A DNA stretch of 32,000 nucleotides from Candidatus Heimdallarchaeota archaeon B3_Heim (GTDB taxonomy: Archaea > Asgardarchaeota > Heimdallarchaeia > Hodarchaeales > Hodarchaeaceae). The notes below the pieces were generated by a model, which did not search any database, had not been told where the DNA came from, and saw nothing but the letters and a program-made list of their open reading frames with translations. Made by a program: the position numbers and the translations under genes. The DNA is taken from assembly GCA_003144275.1 (NCBI GenBank), contig NJBF01000022.1:40509-72508 (forward strand), in the 5' to 3' direction. Positions 59-30,361 of this stretch are shown piece after piece (the first letter of the stretch is position 1; every line of letters begins with the position of its first letter).

Positions 59-526
59 TCATTCGCATTCTCGTATCTGAAAAAGGTTTTTTGCTTCGTC
101 AATATCGATAATAGGGACTGCATTATGAATGCAAGCAAATGATTTACATTTTTTAACCCCAATACCACCCCATTTAACGCCCCAACCTTTTAAAGCACTA
201 AAAATAACAGCGAAATCTTCTCCTTTGTCAGTCAAAGAGTAACCAACACGAATGGGCATTTTTTCACTATGAACAAGTCGGTTAACAACCCCTTGTTCTT
301 CTAATCGACTTAGACTTTCTGATAAAACACGTGCAGATATCTTCTCACTATAATGGCCAAGGATATGTTCTTGTAATTGGCTAAAATATAGTTCTTGGCA
401 CATCAATAATTCACAAATGACGTATAATGTCCATTTACGGCCTAAAATTTTCATTGCAAGGCTAGCTGCACATTCATCAGGTTCTGTTTCATTCATAGTG
501 GTGTTCAACAAAAATTGATCAGTCAT
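59..526 (-). CDS. HxlR/DUF24 (MarR-like winged helix) transcriptional regulator
   Basis: N-terminal Cys (EC-AASLAMKILGRKWTLYVI), then FSQLQ..., ISARVLSESLSRLEEQGVVNR and P-RVGYSLTDKG, matching the HxlR pattern. TATA-like TTTATAA on the minus strand at 554..548. Confidence 0.9.
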   Translation of the reverse strand: MTDQFLLNTTMNETEPDECAASLAMKILGRKWTLYVICELLMCQELYFSQLQEHILGHYSEKISARVLSESLSRLEEQGVVNRLVHSEKMPIRVGYSLTDKGEDFAVIFSALKGWGVKWGGIGVKKCKSFACIHNAVPIIDIDEAKNLFQIRECE

Positions 527-837: not shown

Positions 838-1512
838 ATGTCATTACTAGAAACTGATTTGATTGGAGCAATTGTGCTCCTAGTTGTAGGTATTGTGGCG
901 ATTGTATTAGCCCTCTTACTACTGAAGGAATACCTTGCTTCCAAGAAAATGTATCATTTAGCCTGGGCACTTAGCTTTTTAGTTCTTTTTATCTCGGGTG
1001 TTTTGATTATTTTCCTTGGATGGACTGATACTTTAGAAAATCCACTTGTCCCTCCTGTGGCTGCATTGATCCCAGCAGGTCTAGCTATAGGGCTTCTTTA
1101 TGCAGTCTTTGAAGAGAAACAATATGGATTTTATTATGCAATATATTCTCTAGTATTGATTGCTATTTTAGCAGTCATTAAATTAATGGAGCTAGACTTT
1201 GCATCTTTTGTTTTAATGGGTGTTCACATTCCCTCTGGGTTGATAATATCATTTCTACCAGTATACACAGCATTTACTAAAGAAACAGAATGGACAAGTA
1301 TATTCTTTGGAATTGGTGGTTTACTGATTTCATTTGGCGGCGTTTTGCTCGCCTTCGCAACAGTAGAAGGAATGGAAGCAATTTTGCCATTTGAGGATAT
1401 TCTTGTTATCTTACCGTTCTTATTACTCGTCGTTGGAGTATTCTTTGCCCTCGGAATCGGTATTCCATCAAAATGGAAAGTGGAAATACCTGTAATAAGT
1501 GATTTGTTCTAG
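838..1512 (+). CDS. Conserved hypothetical integral membrane protein (about 7 TM)
   Basis: The ORF track opens at TTG 697, but the first ATG (838, MSLLETDLIGAIVLL) precedes the hydrophobic core. About 7 hydrophobic segments; motifs YHLAWALSFLVL and VHIPSGLII. It ends 11 nt before the next gene. Confidence 0.7.
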   Translation: MSLLETDLIGAIVLLVVGIVAIVLALLLLKEYLASKKMYHLAWALSFLVLFISGVLIIFLGWTDTLENPLVPPVAALIPAGLAIGLLYAVFEEKQYGFYYAIYSLVLIAILAVIKLMELDFASFVLMGVHIPSGLIISFLPVYTAFTKETEWTSIFFGIGGLLISFGGVLLAFATVEGMEAILPFEDILVILPFLLLVVGVFFALGIGIPSKWKVEIPVISDLF

Positions 1513-1523
1513 GTGAATAAACA

Positions 1524-3119
1524 ATGAATGTAGAAAATTCTTCTGACTCAAAAATGGATTGGTTAAAGAGAAAGATAAATTACGGTGCTACCTACAAAGG
1601 TATGATTACTTTTACGGTTGTCTGGCTTTTTGTAATAATACTATTTTTATCTACATTTTCTGAACCAATCGAGCTTATACTCGGTCAACCTTTATTGCCA
1701 ATCTCATTATCTGCTGAGGCAGTTGACAGAGCAGGCCGCATTATAATACTTTACCATAGCATAGCGGTACCAGTTGTTGCAGTATGCACATATTTTGTAT
1801 TAATGTTAATGGATGTCCGTGAAAAGTTCAAATCAAGAGTGAAATGGCCCCTGTTCCTTGGAAGTATCTTAACTTCAGCCAGCGGTATATTGTTTGCCTA
1901 TATCTTTCCTGATCAATGGATTTTACATGGTCTATACTTAGTTGGGCTATCATTATGTTTCTATGCAGGAATCATGCTTCTGCTTGGGGTTTTTCCAACC
2001 AAATCCTTTCCGAAACGAGATGCGGACAACAGTCGAAATGTTGTTTTAGGTCAATCCGCAGTGACACTCCTAACTTTCTGTATTTTACTGAGTGTTATTC
2101 TTGGAGGGGCGATAGGATCCTTTTTCGGAAATGGTTTACTTCCCTTACTTGCAGAGTACTTCCTTCGACCTTATGACCATGATAAATACCCAGAACTCTT
2201 CGTAGATGCTATTAAAGCACATTTACACATTATGTTAGCACTTATTGACGTAATTATTTTACTAGTTGTCTATCGATATACTGTACCAGACCAAAAAGGA
2301 AAATGGTATCGAATCTCGATGATTCTTGCTATGCCAGGTATGTTAATTATGTCAATAGGATCTTGGGCTGTTACGTTTAATTCAGTGGTTGTCTATCCTT
2401 TTGATATGCATTACTTGATTTATGTTGGTGCTGCCATTCTTGTGACCGTTGGCCTAATTTTGGCATTAACGGGCTGGAATAAAATGAGTAAAAAAGCTCT
2501 TGGTGATAACTATGAATCTGCGTCATGGTTTGCTCGGTCTAAGGCTGTTTTCAGTGATCCTGTGAAATTTACGCTTTACTTTCAGCTAATATGGGTAAAT
2601 TTCGTAATGACTTTTGGCGGAATATTCCTAGCCCTCAGTCTCCGTGGACCGACTGACCCAGAAGGAGAATCTCCATTCACAAAAGTGCTTGATATAGTAG
2701 CTTTTCGAGATGGACCCTTAGCAGTTGAAACTACAGTTGCAAGGGGTCATTGGCACATCTTAGCCACATTATCTGCAATCATGTTGGTACTTCTACTGAC
2801 TGATGTTCTAAATATACAGGGCACTACCCGAAAGGTGATGGGTTGGCTGTCATTTGCAGGTAATATTGTCGCATTTGGTCTTGGAATGATATATTTGTAT
2901 TATCCTCACTTTGATCAAGACTGGGCGGTGAATTTGAATAAGTATGTAGATGTTAGAGAGTTTTGGGCGGACCAAAAATTATTCGGGTTTGGAAATTGGC
3001 TTCCCCTTGTGATGGATTTTGGAATAATGCTTCTTATTATCGTAATAACAATTTTCTGCTTCCACCAGTTAATTCAGATAATAAAAGGTAGACATGATGT
3101 CAAACAATGGCCAGAGTGA
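1524..3119 (+). CDS. 12-TM heme-copper oxidase homology (HCO/NOR/NnrS-like fold) membrane protein, non-canonical
   Basis: About 12 hydrophobic segments in three 4-TM units. His in TM2 (LYH78S), TM6 (AH233LH235IM) and TM10 (GH409WH411IL), plus H135 (TM4) and H296 (TM8). No HH pair in TM7. Directly upstream of ctaB. Confidence 0.6.
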   Translation: MNVENSSDSKMDWLKRKINYGATYKGMITFTVVWLFVIILFLSTFSEPIELILGQPLLPISLSAEAVDRAGRIIILYHSIAVPVVAVCTYFVLMLMDVREKFKSRVKWPLFLGSILTSASGILFAYIFPDQWILHGLYLVGLSLCFYAGIMLLLGVFPTKSFPKRDADNSRNVVLGQSAVTLLTFCILLSVILGGAIGSFFGNGLLPLLAEYFLRPYDHDKYPELFVDAIKAHLHIMLALIDVIILLVVYRYTVPDQKGKWYRISMILAMPGMLIMSIGSWAVTFNSVVVYPFDMHYLIYVGAAILVTVGLILALTGWNKMSKKALGDNYESASWFARSKAVFSDPVKFTLYFQLIWVNFVMTFGGIFLALSLRGPTDPEGESPFTKVLDIVAFRDGPLAVETTVARGHWHILATLSAIMLVLLLTDVLNIQGTTRKVMGWLSFAGNIVAFGLGMIYLYYPHFDQDWAVNLNKYVDVREFWADQKLFGFGNWLPLVMDFGIMLLIIVITIFCFHQLIQIIKGRHDVKQWPE

Positions 3120-3161
3120 ATAACTAAAAAAAAGATACTAAAAATGGAACGATAGATACCA

Positions 3162-4103
3162 ATGACAAACATTGACTCCCCAGATCAACTACAGGCATAT
3201 GAACAAGCATCGATTGCCACTACCACGACCACACCATATTTCCTTTATGGAGAACTGATTAAAAGTAAGCAAACATTCTTGTTAGTTTATACAACCTTTT
3301 TTGCTTACTTAATTAGTGCGTGGTCGACTGGTTTTGACTTGAATGTATTCCTGTGGTTGAATGTGGGGGTCTTTTTTGCAATCTCGGGAAGTACATTATT
3401 GAATATGTATATTGATCGAGATATTGATGCACTAATGGAAAGAACAAGAGATCGTCCACTACCTATGGGAAAGATTTCACCCGGGACGGTTCTTCGCCAC
3501 GGTCTACTTTTCACATTTACTGGTCTTCTAGCAATAGCAATATTTGTGGACTACTTGACATTGACTGTCGTCTTTCTTGGTGCCTTTTTTGATGTAGTTG
3601 TTTATTCACTCTTATTAAAACGTAGAACTCGATATTCCATCATTTTTGGAGGAATTGCGGGTGGTTTACCAGCACTAGCTGGATCTACTGCAGCATCAGC
3701 ATCGATAACTTCAGCTGGTCTTTTAATGGGTTTGTTTGTTCTTTGTTGGATTCCTTTGCATATTTTAACTCTTGCATTGCTTCCAAAGAACTTAGAAGGT
3801 TATCAAAAAGCACAAATTCCCATGTGGCCCGTAATTCGAAGTAAAACTCAAACAATACAAGTTATTACATTGTCAGCTATTCTGAGCACTGTACTGATTG
3901 CACTAACAGGAATTGTATTGAATATTCGGCTATTACCTCTATTACCATTATTTGCATTCTGCATCTATATGATATGGCTCTCGGTTTTAAACCTCAGAAA
4001 ACCAACACAAGTTCGTACATTTAGGATCTTTAAGCTTGCATCAATGCTGATGGCATTCGCATTTTTCTGGCTCTTATTAGGAGTAATTGTATCTCCGTAC
4101 TAG
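3162..4103 (+). CDS. ctaB: Protoheme IX farnesyltransferase (heme O synthase, UbiA family)
   Basis: ELIKSKQTFLLV, LNMYIDRDIDALMERTRDRPLPMG, VVYSLLLKRRT, GGIAGGLPALAG and WIPLH are CtaB/CyoE signature motifs. Confidence 0.93.
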   Translation: MTNIDSPDQLQAYEQASIATTTTTPYFLYGELIKSKQTFLLVYTTFFAYLISAWSTGFDLNVFLWLNVGVFFAISGSTLLNMYIDRDIDALMERTRDRPLPMGKISPGTVLRHGLLFTFTGLLAIAIFVDYLTLTVVFLGAFFDVVVYSLLLKRRTRYSIIFGGIAGGLPALAGSTAASASITSAGLLMGLFVLCWIPLHILTLALLPKNLEGYQKAQIPMWPVIRSKTQTIQVITLSAILSTVLIALTGIVLNIRLLPLLPLFAFCIYMIWLSVLNLRKPTQVRTFRIFKLASMLMAFAFFWLLLGVIVSPY

Positions 4104-12129: not shown

Positions 12130-15100
12130 CTAGTGGAAACGGAAATGAACTTGGGGTAATGAGATTACTCCTCGCTCGGTCAATCGTACACCACATATTG
12201 GACACTCGTTCCTAATCTTAACACTCTGAAGTAAGTGACGGCGATGAAAAAAGCTGGAACATTGCGTACATTCAACTAAATCAACATCGGTCGTTGTTAC
12301 GACACTTTTAAGGCAAATTGCGCATGTTAGTCGTTGCGTACAGAATCCACAATTTTTTTGTTTCTCTAAAACAGGATTATTACATTTAGGGCAATTAGAT
12401 TGATAACTAGATTGTTTAGGTAATTCTGTAGTTGTTTTAAGAGTACTTTTATAGATTTCTTTAAGACCTGAACTCCACATGTGGAATATTGTCTGTGGGG
12501 AATCAATCTCGAAGCGTTTGATAAATTTGTTTATTGCCAGAGAATATTCTAGTTCGAATTCTCCCTGTTCAGGTAGCTCCATGAGAAATGGTAAATTTAT
12601 CCATGAACAGTACTCTCCTATTAACGGTAGAATAGCGCGTTTTATCTCAGCTCTTTGTGATTGTTGATATAGAGAGATGTAGTATTTTTCTGGCTCAGAA
12701 GGTGGTCTTTTAGCAAATCGGGTTGTTAACGCGCTAATAGTAGAATCTTCAGAGATATTAATTGAAGGATCTGAAAGGACGTAATCTAATGAGTCTTGAG
12801 GCAGTTTAGTAAAATATGCACTGAGTAAGGACTCACGTACAGATAAATGCGAGTCATTTAATATGGTCAATATTCTAATATCGTCCTCTATTGATCTTCC
12901 TACAGCTTGCTTTATGAGAGCTGATAAAAGAGCTTGACCTTCATCTGAGAATTTTTTTGTCTGATCATTAGTAATAATATCTCGAATCAGCTTATAATCA
13001 TTTGTTGGCCCTCTGAGACGTGAGAGACATTGATCAACAAGAACTGGTCTTAAACTTTTTGTTTTCAGACCTGGGATAATATATTTGAGTAAGATACCAA
13101 ATTTCTTTTCTGATAATTTATTGGTATAGTTCCCAACAGAGATTGCAAGGGAGGAAAGATTGTGATCATCAATATTCTCAATAGTTACTCTTGGATATTT
13201 ACCAATTATTTGGTTAAAGAGGTTTTCAACGAACAATCTCAAATTTACATCAGTATTAAGCTTGGTAAGACGAATTAATACAAGATACAGGAGTTTTTTC
13301 GGGTTTAAGTCAAGAATTGATAGAATTAACGGTTCGATATTCTTATGATTCAACAATGCAGGGTCCCGAATTGAGAGTATTGCATAGAGCATCTGGCTAC
13401 TCTTGGTTGAAAAATCGGGGATGATATATTTCTGGATGTAGGAAGAATGATTCCTTGGTAATGATATGACAATCTCCCCTAAAATTGGTATACTCTTATT
13501 AAATACATGTTTTATTAAGATCTTATATTTAGGTAAGCTTTTACTTGATATAGAGGAGATATTTTGCCAGAATTTCACGATGTCGATGTCAATAAGTTTC
13601 TTTGTAATTTTCAATAACGTCTCTGTATTTTTTTTGGTTTTTTTTTCAAATTTGTTCAAAAATAGAGGTAATACTTCATTTGGACGAAGTAAAAATACTC
13701 TTTCCCATGAGGTGATTAGAGTTTTTTCGAATCCTACTCTAGAAACGAGTTTTTCAATATCAGTATTACTCAGTTCACTAGCAATAATATTCATAGGAAA
13801 CGAAATTTTACTACTAATTTGTATTATTTCATCAAAATGATCCTTAAAGTGGATCTTCAGATAGCTAGCTAAGCTGGTATAGACTGTTGACTCAATAGGT
13901 TGAGAAGTAGTGAGTAATGGAAGAAAATAATTAAAATTTTGGTATAAATAACCAATATGAGAAATATATTTATTTTTTATTAAGTAATTGCTGATATTAC
14001 CCACTGTTTTTGCATCAAAACTTTCTAGAAGTCGAGATACTCGTTTTCTTCTAGTGTAATATTGTTGTTGGATGATTTGCTCTATTAACTTTTTCCATTG
14101 AGTTGTTTTTAGGGAATTGAGTGAAGGACGGAGTATGTTCTGAATATTTGTATCTTTGGTTTGAAAATAAGAATCGATTACTCGTTTTATATCGAGTGTA
14201 GAGTAATTCTGAAATTCTGAAGTAAAGAATTGTGCATATTTGTTTAGATCCTTTTCGAGAAGTGTGAGAAGGAAAAAAAGATAGTCAATTCCGTGAGAGT
14301 CTTTTTGTGCATCTAAATATTTCAATATTGATGATGCGCTTGTAAACAGTAAAGATTCAAGTGTATCAGATAGGAAAGAAATTTCTTTTTCAGTTTCATG
14401 ACGGGTAATTTGAGAAAAGTAGGCGATAATTAATGGGTTTGTTTGTGTTTGTTGTTTAAGAGAGACTGCATTTAAAATTGCACCATTCGTTAGGTTTTTT
14501 GATACAAGCCATTCAATAAATTGTTGCTGTGCTTTATTGGAAGAATTACTGAACCTATGAATCAGAAAAGTAAGCTCCTCACGTGAACTATCAAATATTT
14601 TTAAAAAGATCGGTATCTTTTGAGGAGAAATCTTATTTGGTAGATTTTCGGATGAGCAAGCATTAATTAAATTGTCTTTAGAAACTTCTCGAAAAAGTGG
14701 GAGTATTAGATCAGTGGGTTGTTTCATGTAGCTCTGTAAGATAAGATATAATACTCTAACATCACATTTTACCCAAAGGATTAATAATTCAATAAGATCC
14801 ATATTTTTATTCTTAACTGCCGTTCTATAAGCTTCTTCACTTAATTTCGGATTAAACTGACCCAGTATTCCTTTGGTTATCGATTTATTACACATTCCCC
14901 AGTTCTCAATTAACTTGTTTAAGAACATCTCCTGTACCTCCATTTCAAGTGCAAGTATTGAATCAAGAAATGCTGTGTTTGTAAATACGCTTAATAAATG
15001 ATTAAATCGGTCTGGGTTCAACTCATCAAGATGATTCAAAATATGTGCTAAGCTTTGAGGTAATAATTGTTCAAAACCATATATCATCTGTTTAGTTTCA

Positions 15101-15288
15101 TTATTTTCCCGAAAATTATCGAAAAAAATTCTTATGGCGTGATCAGGACTCTCCTTTACTAGATTATTGATTTTCTTTTTCCATATAAACGGTACTCGTC
15201 CAAAAGAAATCTTTTCATAATCAGATTTTTCCATTGCAGTCATTAGTCCTGATATCACTATGAAGTCTGGGTAATCATTTGTACTCAA
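12130..15288 (-). CDS. Large helical (alpha-solenoid-like) protein with C-terminal C4 zinc ribbon + RING-type domain
   Basis: About 970 aa of Leu/Ile-rich amphipathic sequence, then CPKC-x10-CGFC-x5-CAIC-x14-CTQC-x4-H-x2-H-x10-CPIC (12193..12393). Start is TTG 15288 or ATG 15243. Confidence 0.75.
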   Translation of the reverse strand: MSTNDYPDFIVISGLMTAMEKSDYEKISFGRVPFIWKKKINNLVKESPDHAIRIFFDNFRENNETKQMIYGFEQLLPQSLAHILNHLDELNPDRFNHLLSVFTNTAFLDSILALEMEVQEMFLNKLIENWGMCNKSITKGILGQFNPKLSEEAYRTAVKNKNMDLIELLILWVKCDVRVLYLILQSYMKQPTDLILPLFREVSKDNLINACSSENLPNKISPQKIPIFLKIFDSSREELTFLIHRFSNSSNKAQQQFIEWLVSKNLTNGAILNAVSLKQQTQTNPLIIAYFSQITRHETEKEISFLSDTLESLLFTSASSILKYLDAQKDSHGIDYLFFLLTLLEKDLNKYAQFFTSEFQNYSTLDIKRVIDSYFQTKDTNIQNILRPSLNSLKTTQWKKLIEQIIQQQYYTRRKRVSRLLESFDAKTVGNISNYLIKNKYISHIGYLYQNFNYFLPLLTTSQPIESTVYTSLASYLKIHFKDHFDEIIQISSKISFPMNIIASELSNTDIEKLVSRVGFEKTLITSWERVFLLRPNEVLPLFLNKFEKKTKKNTETLLKITKKLIDIDIVKFWQNISSISSKSLPKYKILIKHVFNKSIPILGEIVISLPRNHSSYIQKYIIPDFSTKSSQMLYAILSIRDPALLNHKNIEPLILSILDLNPKKLLYLVLIRLTKLNTDVNLRLFVENLFNQIIGKYPRVTIENIDDHNLSSLAISVGNYTNKLSEKKFGILLKYIIPGLKTKSLRPVLVDQCLSRLRGPTNDYKLIRDIITNDQTKKFSDEGQALLSALIKQAVGRSIEDDIRILTILNDSHLSVRESLLSAYFTKLPQDSLDYVLSDPSINISEDSTISALTTRFAKRPPSEPEKYYISLYQQSQRAEIKRAILPLIGEYCSWINLPFLMELPEQGEFELEYSLAINKFIKRFEIDSPQTIFHMWSSGLKEIYKSTLKTTTELPKQSSYQSNCPKCNNPVLEKQKNCGFCTQRLTCAICLKSVVTTTDVDLVECTQCSSFFHRRHLLQSVKIRNECPICGVRLTERGVISLPQVHFRFH

Positions 15289-19737: not shown

Positions 19738-19937
19738 CAAATTCAAAATCTTTTGTTTAACTTTTATCGTTTCCATCTTTGTTGATTTTAGCAGTAATTA
19801 AGTAGAATGAAGACAAAAAATTATGTCCTGCGGATATTTTGTCGAGAATTATTTATTATTAGTTGAGCCTTTATTTTTCATGTAGAATTTCCCTGAATAA
19901 GGCGATAACTGGGATAAATTCTCTAGGTGTCTGGCGG

Positions 19938-20849
19938 ATGACATTACTTTCAGTCAAGGTGTTTGATGATGCGAATGAAGAAATTGTCTCTACAATTTCT
20001 GTCACTCCTGATAATTGTCAGACTTCTGCTTCTTTACCAGCCATTCGTAGGCTATTACTTCAGAATAATAATACTCAACCTATTCAAGGGTGGGTTTGTG
20101 GAGACAAGCTCCTAGCCTTTTCATATTTAAATTCACAAAAAGTACTTTTGCTTGCCATTGCCAGTAAAAATACTTCTTTCTCAAAACTTCAATCTTTTCT
20201 AGAATTATTAGGAAAATCCTACAAGCCAGGACTATTTGAAAAACATCAGCCTTCTTTCCAAAAAGATTTTCAGGACATCTGTGATTCTGTTGTTAGAATG
20301 GTGGATTCCTCAACGACACTAAGTATTTCATTATTAGGACTCGCTCGTTCGGGAAAGACAACTTTCATTCAACAACATATAATCGAACAGCAACTAGCAG
20401 GCTTTAATTCGTATAAACCAACAAGACTAGTTAACATCGTATCACATGAAAGGTCTACACCCAGTCCACATATACGTTTTTACGACCTTGGAATGGCTTT
20501 CCAACAACATTGGTGGAAATTTAGTACAGAGTCAGATGGTTATATTTTCTTTGTAGATATCTCAGATAATCGGTCTATTAATGCCTCAAAAGAATTATTA
20601 GAGGAAATTCGTAACTTTTGGGATTTGCCATATGTGATTGCTGCTAATAAAATTGATATTGGCTCCATCAAGAATGTGAGAAGATATCTTTCTAGGAAAT
20701 TACTTGTACCTATTCGATTGATTTACGAAACTGAATCCGTAACAGGAGTTGGCTTCGATCCTTTACTTGAGGGGATGCTTTCAGAGATTCATAAGAACAG
20801 ATCTTATTCCTCAATTATTCAGCCTCAGCCGACGAAGAACGAATTCTAA
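19938..20849 (+). CDS. Arf/Rab-like small GTPase with N-terminal longin-like domain
   Basis: G1 GLARSGKT, G2 YKPT, altered G3 YDLGMA, IFFVD, G4 NKID and G5-like ETES-TG. The N-terminal ~125 aa show a beta-beta-alpha-beta-beta-beta-alpha-alpha pattern by eye. ATG 19938 is preferred over TTG 19863. Confidence 0.72.
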   Translation: MTLLSVKVFDDANEEIVSTISVTPDNCQTSASLPAIRRLLLQNNNTQPIQGWVCGDKLLAFSYLNSQKVLLLAIASKNTSFSKLQSFLELLGKSYKPGLFEKHQPSFQKDFQDICDSVVRMVDSSTTLSISLLGLARSGKTTFIQQHIIEQQLAGFNSYKPTRLVNIVSHERSTPSPHIRFYDLGMAFQQHWWKFSTESDGYIFFVDISDNRSINASKELLEEIRNFWDLPYVIAANKIDIGSIKNVRRYLSRKLLVPIRLIYETESVTGVGFDPLLEGMLSEIHKNRSYSSIIQPQPTKNEF

Positions 20850-28537: not shown

Positions 28538-28553
28538 AAATTTGTCAGACAAC
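28538..28553. repeat. 16-bp inverted repeat, arm 1 (partner at 29932-29947)
   Basis: aaatttgtcagacaac. Its reverse complement gttgtctgacaaattt matches gttgtcagacaaattt at 15/16. Confidence 0.9.
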
Positions 28554-28700
28554 TCTTGAAAAAGAGTTCTGGACAGGATGAGTCACACATCCGCTATCCG
28601 GCAAGTGAGTCACCGCTGAAGGTGAACTGACCGTAGGGATTACTTGGCTGCGGTTAATATACCGCTGAAGGATATTACGGGCGGCATTATAATCAGCATT
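28544..28700 (-). ncRNA. Predicted omegaRNA/reRNA scaffold overlapping the tnpB 3' end (boundaries approximate)
   Basis: TnpB guide RNAs are known to derive from the right end. Hairpins seen on the minus strand: GCGGT-atatta-ACCGC, GGATG-tgtgact-CATCC and AACTCTT-tttc-AAGAGTT. Confidence 0.45.
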
Positions 28701-29819
28701 CAGGTGATGACCACATTTACGACAACAGAAGCATCCACGCGACTTCCGGTTACGTTTGTCTACATAGCCACACTGACTACATTGTTGGGAGGTATACGCC
28801 TCATTTACTCGCACTACCGTCATCCCAACAAGTTTGGCTTTATACTCGAGCATCTGAACGAATTTAAGGAGGGGGATTTGAACAAAAGACTGATTGGTGC
28901 GTTTTCCTAAGTTACAGTGCTGTTTCCACCTCGCGTTGTAACCGATAACCAATGTATCGATATTGTGCTGTAAACAGTAAGTGATAATCCTCCGGGAGGT
29001 TTGATGGAAGAAATTCTGAAGGCGGTTCATCCGCACTCGCTGAAGCCCTTGAATCCGGCGAGTGGTAAACTGTTGATTGTGAGTGGTTGCTAGCGATCGA
29101 TAATGGGCCAGTTGTTTGTTATACCACTGATTAATGGTCTTCCCCACCCCGCCTTTGACGAGTAAGCCGTCTGACGTAGTTACGAGGTTGTTAAGACCAA
29201 GATCTATTCCCATAGCTCGGGGAGAAAACGAATCAGTGATGGGAAAAGGGTGAACTTGTACTTCATAGAGTAATTCTACCACAAATCGATCGTAAAACGG
29301 CACCAATCGAGCTCCCACACATGTTTCTACAGTTAATGGAAGGGTTCCGAGTGAAAAAGTGGGAAAGCCGCGTGCCATGAGATTCTTGGCAAAAAGAATC
29401 TGGTTCTCCCGAATTCGGACCCTGCGACGGGGAAAGTTCAGCATGTGCAGCCCATTCTTGGGTTTATACCTGGGCGCTCGGGGCCGGGTCTGAAATTTGG
29501 TCGGATCGGTTTTCCATGCCTTCAGTCCATTGAAAAAGCTCCGCCAGATTTGTTCTACCTGTCGGAGGACTTGTTGCGGTAAATAACTATCCGAAATGTC
29601 CTTTAATGCGAGATACACTGGTTCGTGCTTGAGGCGATGATACAAGCTCGTGTATTGGAGCCATTTCCCCGTCTTAAAGAATTCCTGGCGTACCTCATAG
29701 GTGGCGCAATTATACAGATTTTTGGCACAGGTGCACAAATCAGTAAAAATGGGTCGCGGTTTCATCTGCCTTCGGATAGCTAACTGGGGGTGAGAGTGTT
29801 TCTTGGTACGCATTCCCAT
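28545..29819 (-). CDS. tnpB: RNA-guided endonuclease TnpB (IS200/IS605/IS1341 OrfB family)
   Basis: AKNLYNCATYEVRQ HTH, RuvC-I MGIDLGLNNL, LVIGYNARWKQ, VNEAYTSQQCSQC...CRKC zinc finger and RuvC-III LNADYNAARNI. Confidence 0.95.
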   Translation of the reverse strand: MGMRTKKHSHPQLAIRRQMKPRPIFTDLCTCAKNLYNCATYEVRQEFFKTGKWLQYTSLYHRLKHEPVYLALKDISDSYLPQQVLRQVEQIWRSFFNGLKAWKTDPTKFQTRPRAPRYKPKNGLHMLNFPRRRVRIRENQILFAKNLMARGFPTFSLGTLPLTVETCVGARLVPFYDRFVVELLYEVQVHPFPITDSFSPRAMGIDLGLNNLVTTSDGLLVKGGVGKTINQWYNKQLAHYRSLATTHNQQFTTRRIQGLQRVRMNRLQNFFHQTSRRIITYCLQHNIDTLVIGYNARWKQHCNLGKRTNQSFVQIPLLKFVQMLEYKAKLVGMTVVRVNEAYTSQQCSQCGYVDKRNRKSRGCFCCRKCGHHLNADYNAARNILQRYINRSQVIPTVSSPSAVTHLPDSGCVTHPVQNSFSRVV

Positions 29820-29931
29820 TCCAAGAAGGCTCCCTCGCTCTTATAAGCTCGAGACAGAGAGAGATCAGTGAAAATAACAAATGTGACGAAAATGAACCTT
29901 TTTTCTTCCTGGCCTACACTAATAGATACCC

Positions 29932-29947
29932 GTTGTCAGACAAATTT
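29932..29947. repeat. 16-bp inverted repeat, arm 2 (partner at 28538-28553)
   Basis: gttgtcagacaaattt; both arms contain the palindromic core TTGTCWGACAA. Confidence 0.9.
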
Positions 29948-30361
29948 GATCATGGATGTATACAAAAAAAGAAGTGTGAGGCATACAAGAATTCCTATCA
30001 CAGGTGCAAGTGTGCTCATTGGTCGGAATGTGTCGAACATCTCCTTCTCTTTTTTTAAGTATTCAAGAAAGGTTTCTGCATCAGAATTAAAATCTATACC
30101 TTTCTTTATTTTCCAAATGACCTCTTTATCTAATACAATATCTCTATTCACTTGATTCATAATATTTACCTCTAAGAGATTCAATAGGACGACAATTGGG
30201 GGATAATATTGAACAGATGTTTAGTTACGACCGAGTTAATTTATAAAAGTTATTTTGATAGGAGAAATGGTTTAAGAATAGAAAAGTCTTTATTATGTCA
30301 TTACTTCAAAATCGAATAACTGATTCTTTATTGTCTACGAGAGTTAATTACCTAAAGGGAA

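Follow-up and report, generated by a model that had tools for sequence, protein, structure and literature searches.

A membrane protein with an oxidase-like predicted fold, paired with a haem O synthase-like gene in Asgard archaea and bacteria

In the haem-copper oxidases (HCOs), subunit I binds two haems through histidines of transmembrane (TM) helices 2 and 10, and since residues i and i+2 of an alpha-helix face nearly opposite sides, the HxH motif of TM10 binds both. Oxidases of the A and B families also carry a cross-linked tyrosine one helix turn after the TM6 histidine (HPxxY). The nitric oxide reductases (NORs) retain three histidines and a glutamate as FeB ligands, and their haem is haem b rather than haem O; one of them, qNOR, accepts electrons from quinol and needs no separate cytochrome c subunit. 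Cytochrome bd, with which many anaerobes scavenge O2, is a copper-free, haem-only oxidant reductase. Here we analyze a window of 32,000 nucleotides from Candidatus Heimdallarchaeota archaeon B3_Heim (assembly GCA_003144275.1, contig NJBF01000022.1, positions 40,509 to 72,508), in which three open reading frames (ORFs) on one strand, at window positions 838 to 4103, encode a small membrane protein (S), a 12-TM protein (H), and a haem-O-synthase-like UbiA prenyltransferase (U), in that order. We put the probability at roughly 0.5 that H serves as core subunit of a so far undescribed membrane oxidoreductase that depends on haem O, either a very divergent branch of the HCO superfamily or a sister to it.

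H (window positions 1524 to 3119, plus strand; 531 residues) found no family match among Pfam, NCBIfam, and PDB sequence profiles, and a PDB profile hit to MrpB was at chance level (E = 0.06). An AlphaFold model built from 32 homologues (predicted local distance difference test score [pLDDT], 87.2; predicted TM-score [pTM], 0.89) has 12 long helices, and its top 50 Foldseek matches were all subunit I of HCOs or NORs, with weak E values and TM-scores of 0.45 to 0.57 over the whole length. VIA, a structural search independent of Foldseek, ranked the cbb3 oxidase subunit CcoN first (3mk7_A; Z = 20.8, with a root-mean-square deviation of 3.8 Å over 414 residues) and filled ranks 2 to 10 with A-, B-, and C-family oxidases, cNOR, and qNOR (Z of 14.5 to 18.7), before the first unrelated fold appeared at Z = 11. 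In the ESM Atlas, COX1 was the nearest named cluster outside the H family itself. Judged by this model, H has the subunit I fold of the HCOs, 12 TM helices in three four-helix arcs. An earlier reading made from the letters of the window (the sequence-only reading) had assigned H to this fold, and both structural searches bear it out. Its further comparisons, with NnrS-like proteins and with haem A synthase, are not supported: H matches neither NnrS (PF05940) nor CtaA/COX15 (PF02628) at E ≤ 1, and the top structural matches are all HCO or NOR. A family missing from a structural match list is not thereby excluded, which for CtaA limits what the fold comparison alone can say, and the model has 12 TM helices rather than 8.

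The resemblance to subunit I structures of the HCOs (CcoN, 3mk7; ba3 CbaA, 1ehk and 3s8f; bo3 CyoB, 1fft; aa3 CtaD) is co-linear across all 12 helices, at Z of 16.8 to 20.8 over about 400 to 430 residues, and NorB and qNOR (4xyd, 3o0r, 3ayg, and 6fwf) share the fold at Z of 14.5 to 17.2. With the NORs, H also appears to share a non-copper active site, and proton-pumping motifs are not evident; unlike them, it retains at most two distal histidines and travels with a haem O synthase gene, a linkage it has in common with A- and B-family oxidases. Newly described NOR families are members of the HCO superfamily (PMC11214002), whereas the profile of H falls short of that superfamily. Cytochrome bd would be a functional analogue only, its fold and haem set being unrelated to those of H (Hodarchaeales are treated in bioRxiv 10.1101/2025.02.26.640444).

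As a family, H comprises 681 scored homologues, 340 clusters at 50% identity, and relatives in at least 571 species genomes. The homologues closest to the B3_Heim protein carry the names Hodarchaeales, Heimdallarchaeota, or Hermodarchaeota. The family profile reaches only these 340 clusters in a library of 50%-identity clusters and therefore stops short of canonical COX1. In the H tree, Asgard and bacterial sequences occupy separate parts, and bacteria other than Chloroflexota are nested inside Chloroflexota. Two variants of the gene deserve mention in their own right. A shorter Anaerolineae subfamily of 430 to 470 residues (L043:3784-7228, L054:2-2644, and G319:C99:18836-21913) adjoins a divergent PF00115 protein of about 550 residues (210 to 220 bits) and has no adjacent U. 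In two genomes of the same genus, one in-frame TGA each was reported within the match to H (G102:C4:140444-142003 and G280:C91:11058-12614), which may reflect a sequencing error, a pseudogene, or a recoded codon.

Conservation was counted in 93 diverse relatives of H. Three histidines (H78, H233, and H409) are kept in all 93, three more (H235, H296, and H411) in 92, and H135 in 90, as are R72, Y77, R395, and E402, while E211 is kept in 87. Because the mean column identity is 46% in a 32-sequence alignment of the family (A1), a pattern in which seven histidines persist in 90 to 93 of 93 sequences is not a matter of chance. The sequence-only reading had singled out these positions, and they proved to be conserved as it anticipated. 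In the model, H78 lies in TM2 (residues 66 to 95), H233 and H235 in TM6 (224 to 253), and H409 and H411 in TM10 (399 to 428), all five of them 9 to 12 residues inward from the outer end of their helix, and H135 and H296 stand at the outer starts of TM4 (132 to 156) and TM8 (295 to 329).

Comparison with the COX1 of the same genome, whose ligands are H75, H247 (in HPAVY), H296-H297, and H385/H387, shows that the histidine spacing of H is co-linear with that of a canonical oxidase and where the two depart from each other. The TM2 histidine (H78) and the TM10 HxH (H409-W-H411) of H sit in the helices that carry the haem ligands of oxidases, which predicts haem binding, and TM6 again carries histidine. 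The His-His pair that binds CuB is absent, however: TM7 and its loop (residues 260 to 294) contain no histidine, and only the single H296 follows, at the start of TM8. The cross-linked tyrosine is missing too at the only position tested, one turn after the TM6 histidines, where H has M237 after H233 and A239 after H235 and the B3_Heim COX1 has H247-PAV-Y251. To these losses H adds a second TM6 histidine, H233, and H135 at the start of TM4. The absence of a TM7 pair and the presence of a second HxH in TM6 had both been read correctly from the sequence beforehand.

The histidines also follow an internal repeat. Aligned with hhalign, the four-helix units of H resemble one another, unit 2 matching unit 3 with a probability of 85.6% (E = 5.6e-6) and unit 1 matching unit 3 with 87.6% (E = 3.5e-6), so that the three-fold histidine periodicity proposed earlier is visible at the level of sequence. 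A control alignment of the B3_Heim COX1 gave 96% for units 1 and 3 and 12.9% for units 2 and 3. The control rules out the idea that only the H family keeps a readable triplication; what appears distinctive in H is that its second unit still resembles its third (85.6% versus 12.9%). Weak local hhalign matches also placed two H motifs, GHLH of TM6 and GHWH of TM10 (residues 408 to 411), on the same GHFH of COX1 TM10.

The partner gene U (window positions 3162 to 4103, plus strand; 313 residues) encodes a UbiA prenyltransferase (PF01040, E = 1.5e-44) that scores 204.9 bits on the haem O synthase model TIGR01473, against an equivalog cut-off of 210.3, and 53.5 bits on the best prenyltransferase family of another kind. 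H-linked U proteins of relatives score 195 to 230 bits on TIGR01473. In B3_Heim, U is the only CtaB-like gene found. A tree of 86 U and CtaB sequences placed the COX-linked CtaB of Asgard archaea and Anaerolineae on one side of a split (Shimodaira-Hasegawa-like approximate likelihood ratio test [SH-aLRT] support, 99), gathered bacterial H-linked U into one clade (SH-aLRT, 99), and set Asgard H-linked U apart from both. Two CtaB genes occur together in many Anaerolineae genomes: one lies next to COX1 and scores 300 to 340 bits, the other lies next to H and scores 200 to 230 bits. As both kinds occur in one genome and their clades are separate, U is best regarded as a dedicated paralogue, and the H-U pair probably marks an undescribed haem-O-dependent membrane enzyme with its own haem O synthase. 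B3_Heim encodes a canonical A-type oxidase operon as well, with COX3, COX2, COX1, COX4, and SCO1 on a short separate contig (C92; L001:318-4243), where no ctaB or ctaA gene adjoins it.

Co-occurrence across genomes points the same way. A sample of 301 Asgard genomes yielded 50 with H, 22 with COX1, and 62 with a CtaB-like gene. A CtaB-like gene accompanies H in 48 of its 50 genomes, and COX1 in only 14. No COX1 match was found in 34 of the 48 genomes with both H and a CtaB-like gene, and these 34 include a one-contig genome (G026) and several that are 97 to 100% complete and have H immediately beside their only CtaB-like gene. In a sample of 151 Anaerolineae genomes, H occurs in 28, every one of which also has a CtaB-like gene. 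Since H tracks the CtaB-like gene, often where COX1 is missing, H is most simply read as a client of haem O.

The same counts bear on whether H instead modifies haem O, either as an alternative haem A synthase-like enzyme or as the maker of a new haem derivative, with bis-His haem b cofactors and a substrate site. H adjoins a haem O synthase gene, as in ctaA-ctaB operons, and its three four-helix units place histidines in helices 2 and 4, a loose echo of the way CtaA/COX15 is built from repeats with His ligands. In addition, no PF02628 CtaA was found in the B3_Heim genome despite its A-type COX operon, although this absence is weak evidence and allows no conclusion, as the same search missed Sulfolobus in controls. 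Against such a role, 34 of the 48 Asgard genomes that pair H with a CtaB-like gene show no COX1 to use a modified haem, so that H occurs mostly where no haem A client was found; H also lacks a PF02628 match and has the HCO/NOR fold already described. A haem A synthase-like function is hard to square with these genomes, and we consider a haem-modifying H very unlikely.

Gene order supports H as part of a conserved module. We analyzed 90 loci with an H gene, most with flanks of up to 10 kb, and in 76 of them U lies downstream of H or of H followed by a gene that we call F. H and U are paired not only in Asgard archaea but also in six or more bacterial phyla, with bacterial carriers in Chloroflexota, Aminicenantes, Symbiobacteriaceae, Desulfuromonadaceae, Spirochaetota, and Bacteroidota. 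The linkage to ctaB on which the sequence-only reading relied is thus kept well beyond this genome. In Asgard archaea the order is S2, an HxlR gene on the opposite strand, S, H, and U, and in bacteria it is (S), H, F, U, (S), and (D), where the genes in parentheses are S-type genes and D, which encodes a polytopic membrane protein. In 12 to 13 Asgard loci, the gene immediately upstream of S or H encodes an HxlR protein; 24 bacterial loci have a Crp/Fnr regulator instead, common enough there to count as a likeness to NORs. No gene for COX2, a cupredoxin, or a cytochrome c was found in the window module or in recurrent neighbor clusters, and the COX2 of B3_Heim belongs to its canonical operon on C92. 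This agrees with the claim that the module has no subunit II and, taken with the missing CuB pair and cross-linked tyrosine, strongly supports the earlier conclusion that H is not a normal terminal oxidase.

S (window positions 838 to 1512, plus strand; 224 residues, seven TM helices) starts at an ATG within an ORF that opens at TTG 697. It has no Pfam or NCBIfam match, is 26 to 34% identical to small membrane proteins that flank H in bacteria, and has S-type counterparts in 46 to 47 of the 90 loci; an intramembrane histidine, His130, is present in every one of the 17 S-type rows in its alignment (A2). A model of S (pLDDT, 90.5) is a generic 7-TM bundle with a best Z of 13.9 and a flat match list. 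A COX3-like subunit was considered and rejected, as no COX3 stood among the matches listed by the Atlas or VIA, which were generic 7-TM and GPCR-like bundles. H has neither a subunit II nor a subunit III gene beside it. Prediction of a complex of H and S with two haems scored 0.00, which gives no verdict and is evidence neither way. That S is a conserved neighbor of H, in bacteria as well, upholds one part of the earlier proposal of a 7-TM accessory subunit, and S is a candidate for the role itself. A second small membrane protein of the module, S2 (243 residues), is encoded just upstream of the window (G000:C44:39761-40492; L134:15762-16493) and recurs upstream of the HxlR gene in Asgard loci. 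It weakly resembles bacterial D, with which it shares a GIGxTC motif (BLASTP E = 3e-5).

The bacterial F has the FGE fold (PF03781), carries a lipoprotein signal peptide, and lacks the FGE cysteine pair; it is absent from Asgard loci. In the metagenomic protein P0127 (785 residues), an FGE-sulfatase domain of the F type is fused to the C terminus of H through an extra hydrophobic segment, which places F outside the membrane and attached to H. Another metagenomic fusion, P0225 (777 residues), joins H to a PD40 beta-propeller. The F fusion invites the reading that H is a non-catalytic multihaem membrane cytochrome, a quinol dehydrogenase or electron conduit to extracytoplasmic partners such as the FGE-fold lipoprotein and multihaem c-type cytochromes. 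Five of the seven histidines lie at equal predicted depth in the membrane, the HxH motifs of TM6 and TM10 could bridge bis-His haems, and multihaem cytochrome c genes occur near H in 8 bacterial and 4 archaeal loci, with CcmF-like genes in 9. Most loci, however, have no cytochrome c gene, and the absence of F from Asgard loci leaves the conduit without that partner there. Cytochromes that simply transfer electrons can usually do without a prenylated haem, and the conservation of Y77, E211, E402, and three arginines suggests more than a wire. We regard a purely electron-conducting H as quite unlikely.

Other genes recur around H. In Heimdall and Thor loci (L002:1-4836 and L003:1-5562), three genes form a conserved set ahead of the module; they encode an NrfA-like multihaem cytochrome c, a 740-residue GlcNAc-2-epimerase-like protein, and a CcmF-like haem lyase. 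Two further CtaB-like genes lie about 20 kb from H in a Heimdall genome that consists of one contig and has no COX1 (L113; G256:C1:1568000-1586000), and these adjoin genes for a NapH/CcoG-type 4Fe-4S membrane protein, a hemerythrin-PAS protein, and an FTR1 iron permease. Genes for FTR1, hemerythrin, and Crp are also found near H in an Anaerolineae locus (L005).

Returning to H as a haem-O-dependent oxidoreductase, it would belong to the oxidase superfamily, be poor in copper, and have O2, NO, or an oxidant of that kind as its substrate, and its residues can be assigned to cofactor sites at the level of helix and helix face. U would make haem O for H. As in oxidases, H78 of TM2 and H411 of TM10 would bind a low-spin haem and H409 of TM10 the high-spin haem O. 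The distal pocket would be formed by H235 of TM6 and H296 at the start of TM8, possibly with E211, in place of the three CuB histidines. Because residues i and i+2 point away from each other, as in the TM10 HxH, H233 and H235 should serve two different pockets, and H233, which points to the other side of TM6, may combine with H135 and Y77 to hold a metal or a third haem. This third site would occupy the pore that forms the D-channel in oxidases. Electrons would probably come from quinol, as MenA and cytochrome bd are encoded in the genome and neither a cytochrome c nor a cupredoxin partner belongs to the module, and would reduce a small oxidant such as O2, NO, or peroxide. S and S2 would act as accessory membrane subunits, and a redox- or stress-sensing regulator, HxlR here and Crp/Fnr in bacteria, would control the module.

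Several results weigh against this proposal. H does not match PF00115 even at E ≤ 1 (gathering score, 34.8 bits), and whole-length hhalign of the H and COX1 alignments gave a probability of at most 10%; the global alignment was meaningless. U falls just below the equivalog cut-off and sits in its own clade, so that its product could differ from standard haem O. The argument that H is the sole client applies mainly to Asgard archaea, because 25 of the 28 H-bearing Anaerolineae genomes also have a PF00115 protein. Haem binding by H, the type of haem, the metal content, and the substrate are predictions, and since only one or two histidines remain for a distal metal, H may instead have a non-catalytic role in electron transfer or haem handling. 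One such role would be that of a haem O chaperone, transporter, insertase, or sensor with no redox chemistry of its own. The tight coupling of H to U and the lack of a recognizable catalytic metal site are its sole support. In genomes without COX1, we found no other conserved client protein to which haem could be delivered, and seven intramembrane histidines with paired arginines and glutamates are typical of fixed cofactor sites. As the family is also under purifying conservation across both domains, we judge a chaperone-like H highly improbable.

The assignment of H233 and H235 to different pockets opens a bolder version in which H belongs to the oxidase superfamily but works with three haems and no copper. 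Each four-helix unit would contribute an Arg-His pair (R72/H78, R215/H233, and R395/H409), the HxH motifs of TM6 and TM10 would bridge neighboring haems, and a reactive five-coordinate haem O would sit in the pore that later became the D-channel of modern oxidases. We think this version unlikely. Were it true, the clean archaeal/bacterial split of both H and U would point to an old anaerobic lineage, one that records a role of the oxidase fold before, or apart from, copper-based O2 reduction.

We found no description of the H family in the literature. Widespread as it is, and with the predicted fold of respiratory oxidases, it is labelled "hypothetical" everywhere, and it may be an unrecognized enzyme of sediment and digester anaerobes that handles O2, NO, or other oxidants. 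Its altered histidine set and more even three-fold repeat make ideas on the early evolution of the oxidase fold testable. There is also a consequence for genome interpretation. In the debate over whether the archaeal forebears of eukaryotes were aerobic, haem O synthase serves as a marker of oxygen metabolism, and the relevant passages of two studies (bioRxiv 10.1101/2024.07.04.601786 and 10.1101/2025.02.26.640444) treat haem O synthesis as part of that metabolism, with no H partner appearing in those passages. This marker needs to be read again, because 48 of the 62 sampled Asgard genomes with a CtaB-like gene have H, 34 of them have no COX1, and the H-linked clades are separate from the COX-linked one.

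The assembly that holds the window totals 3.95 Mb and is 94% complete, and the G+C content of the window is about 36%. Within the module, S and H are separated by 11 nucleotides and H and U by 42; on rereading the ORFs, these gaps, the ORF sizes, and the histidine positions were all as first described. Divergent to the module is a gene for an HxlR-family transcription regulator (positions 59 to 526, minus strand; PF01638, E = 2.9e-17, 62.7 bits against a gathering score of 20.8), and the 311 nucleotides between it and S (positions 527 to 837), read from the sequence, presumably contain the promoter and operator. A scan of the window for promoters and terminators of the bacterial type, which is unsuited to an archaeon, stayed at chance level and is uninformative, and searches for tRNAs and Rfam families in the window were negative. 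An aldo-keto reductase gene lies downstream of the module. Further along, the window encodes a 1,052-residue protein with a C-terminal RING finger (positions 12130 to 15288, minus strand; PF13639, E = 3e-4) and an Arf/Ras-family small GTPase (19863 to 20849, plus strand), both of them eukaryote-like signature genes typical of Asgard archaea. A TnpB/Cas12f-like gene with OrfB_IS605 and TNB domains (28545 to 29819, minus strand) lies in a local GC-rich patch, the G+C fraction being 0.46 at positions 29001 to 30000 and about 0.36 elsewhere.

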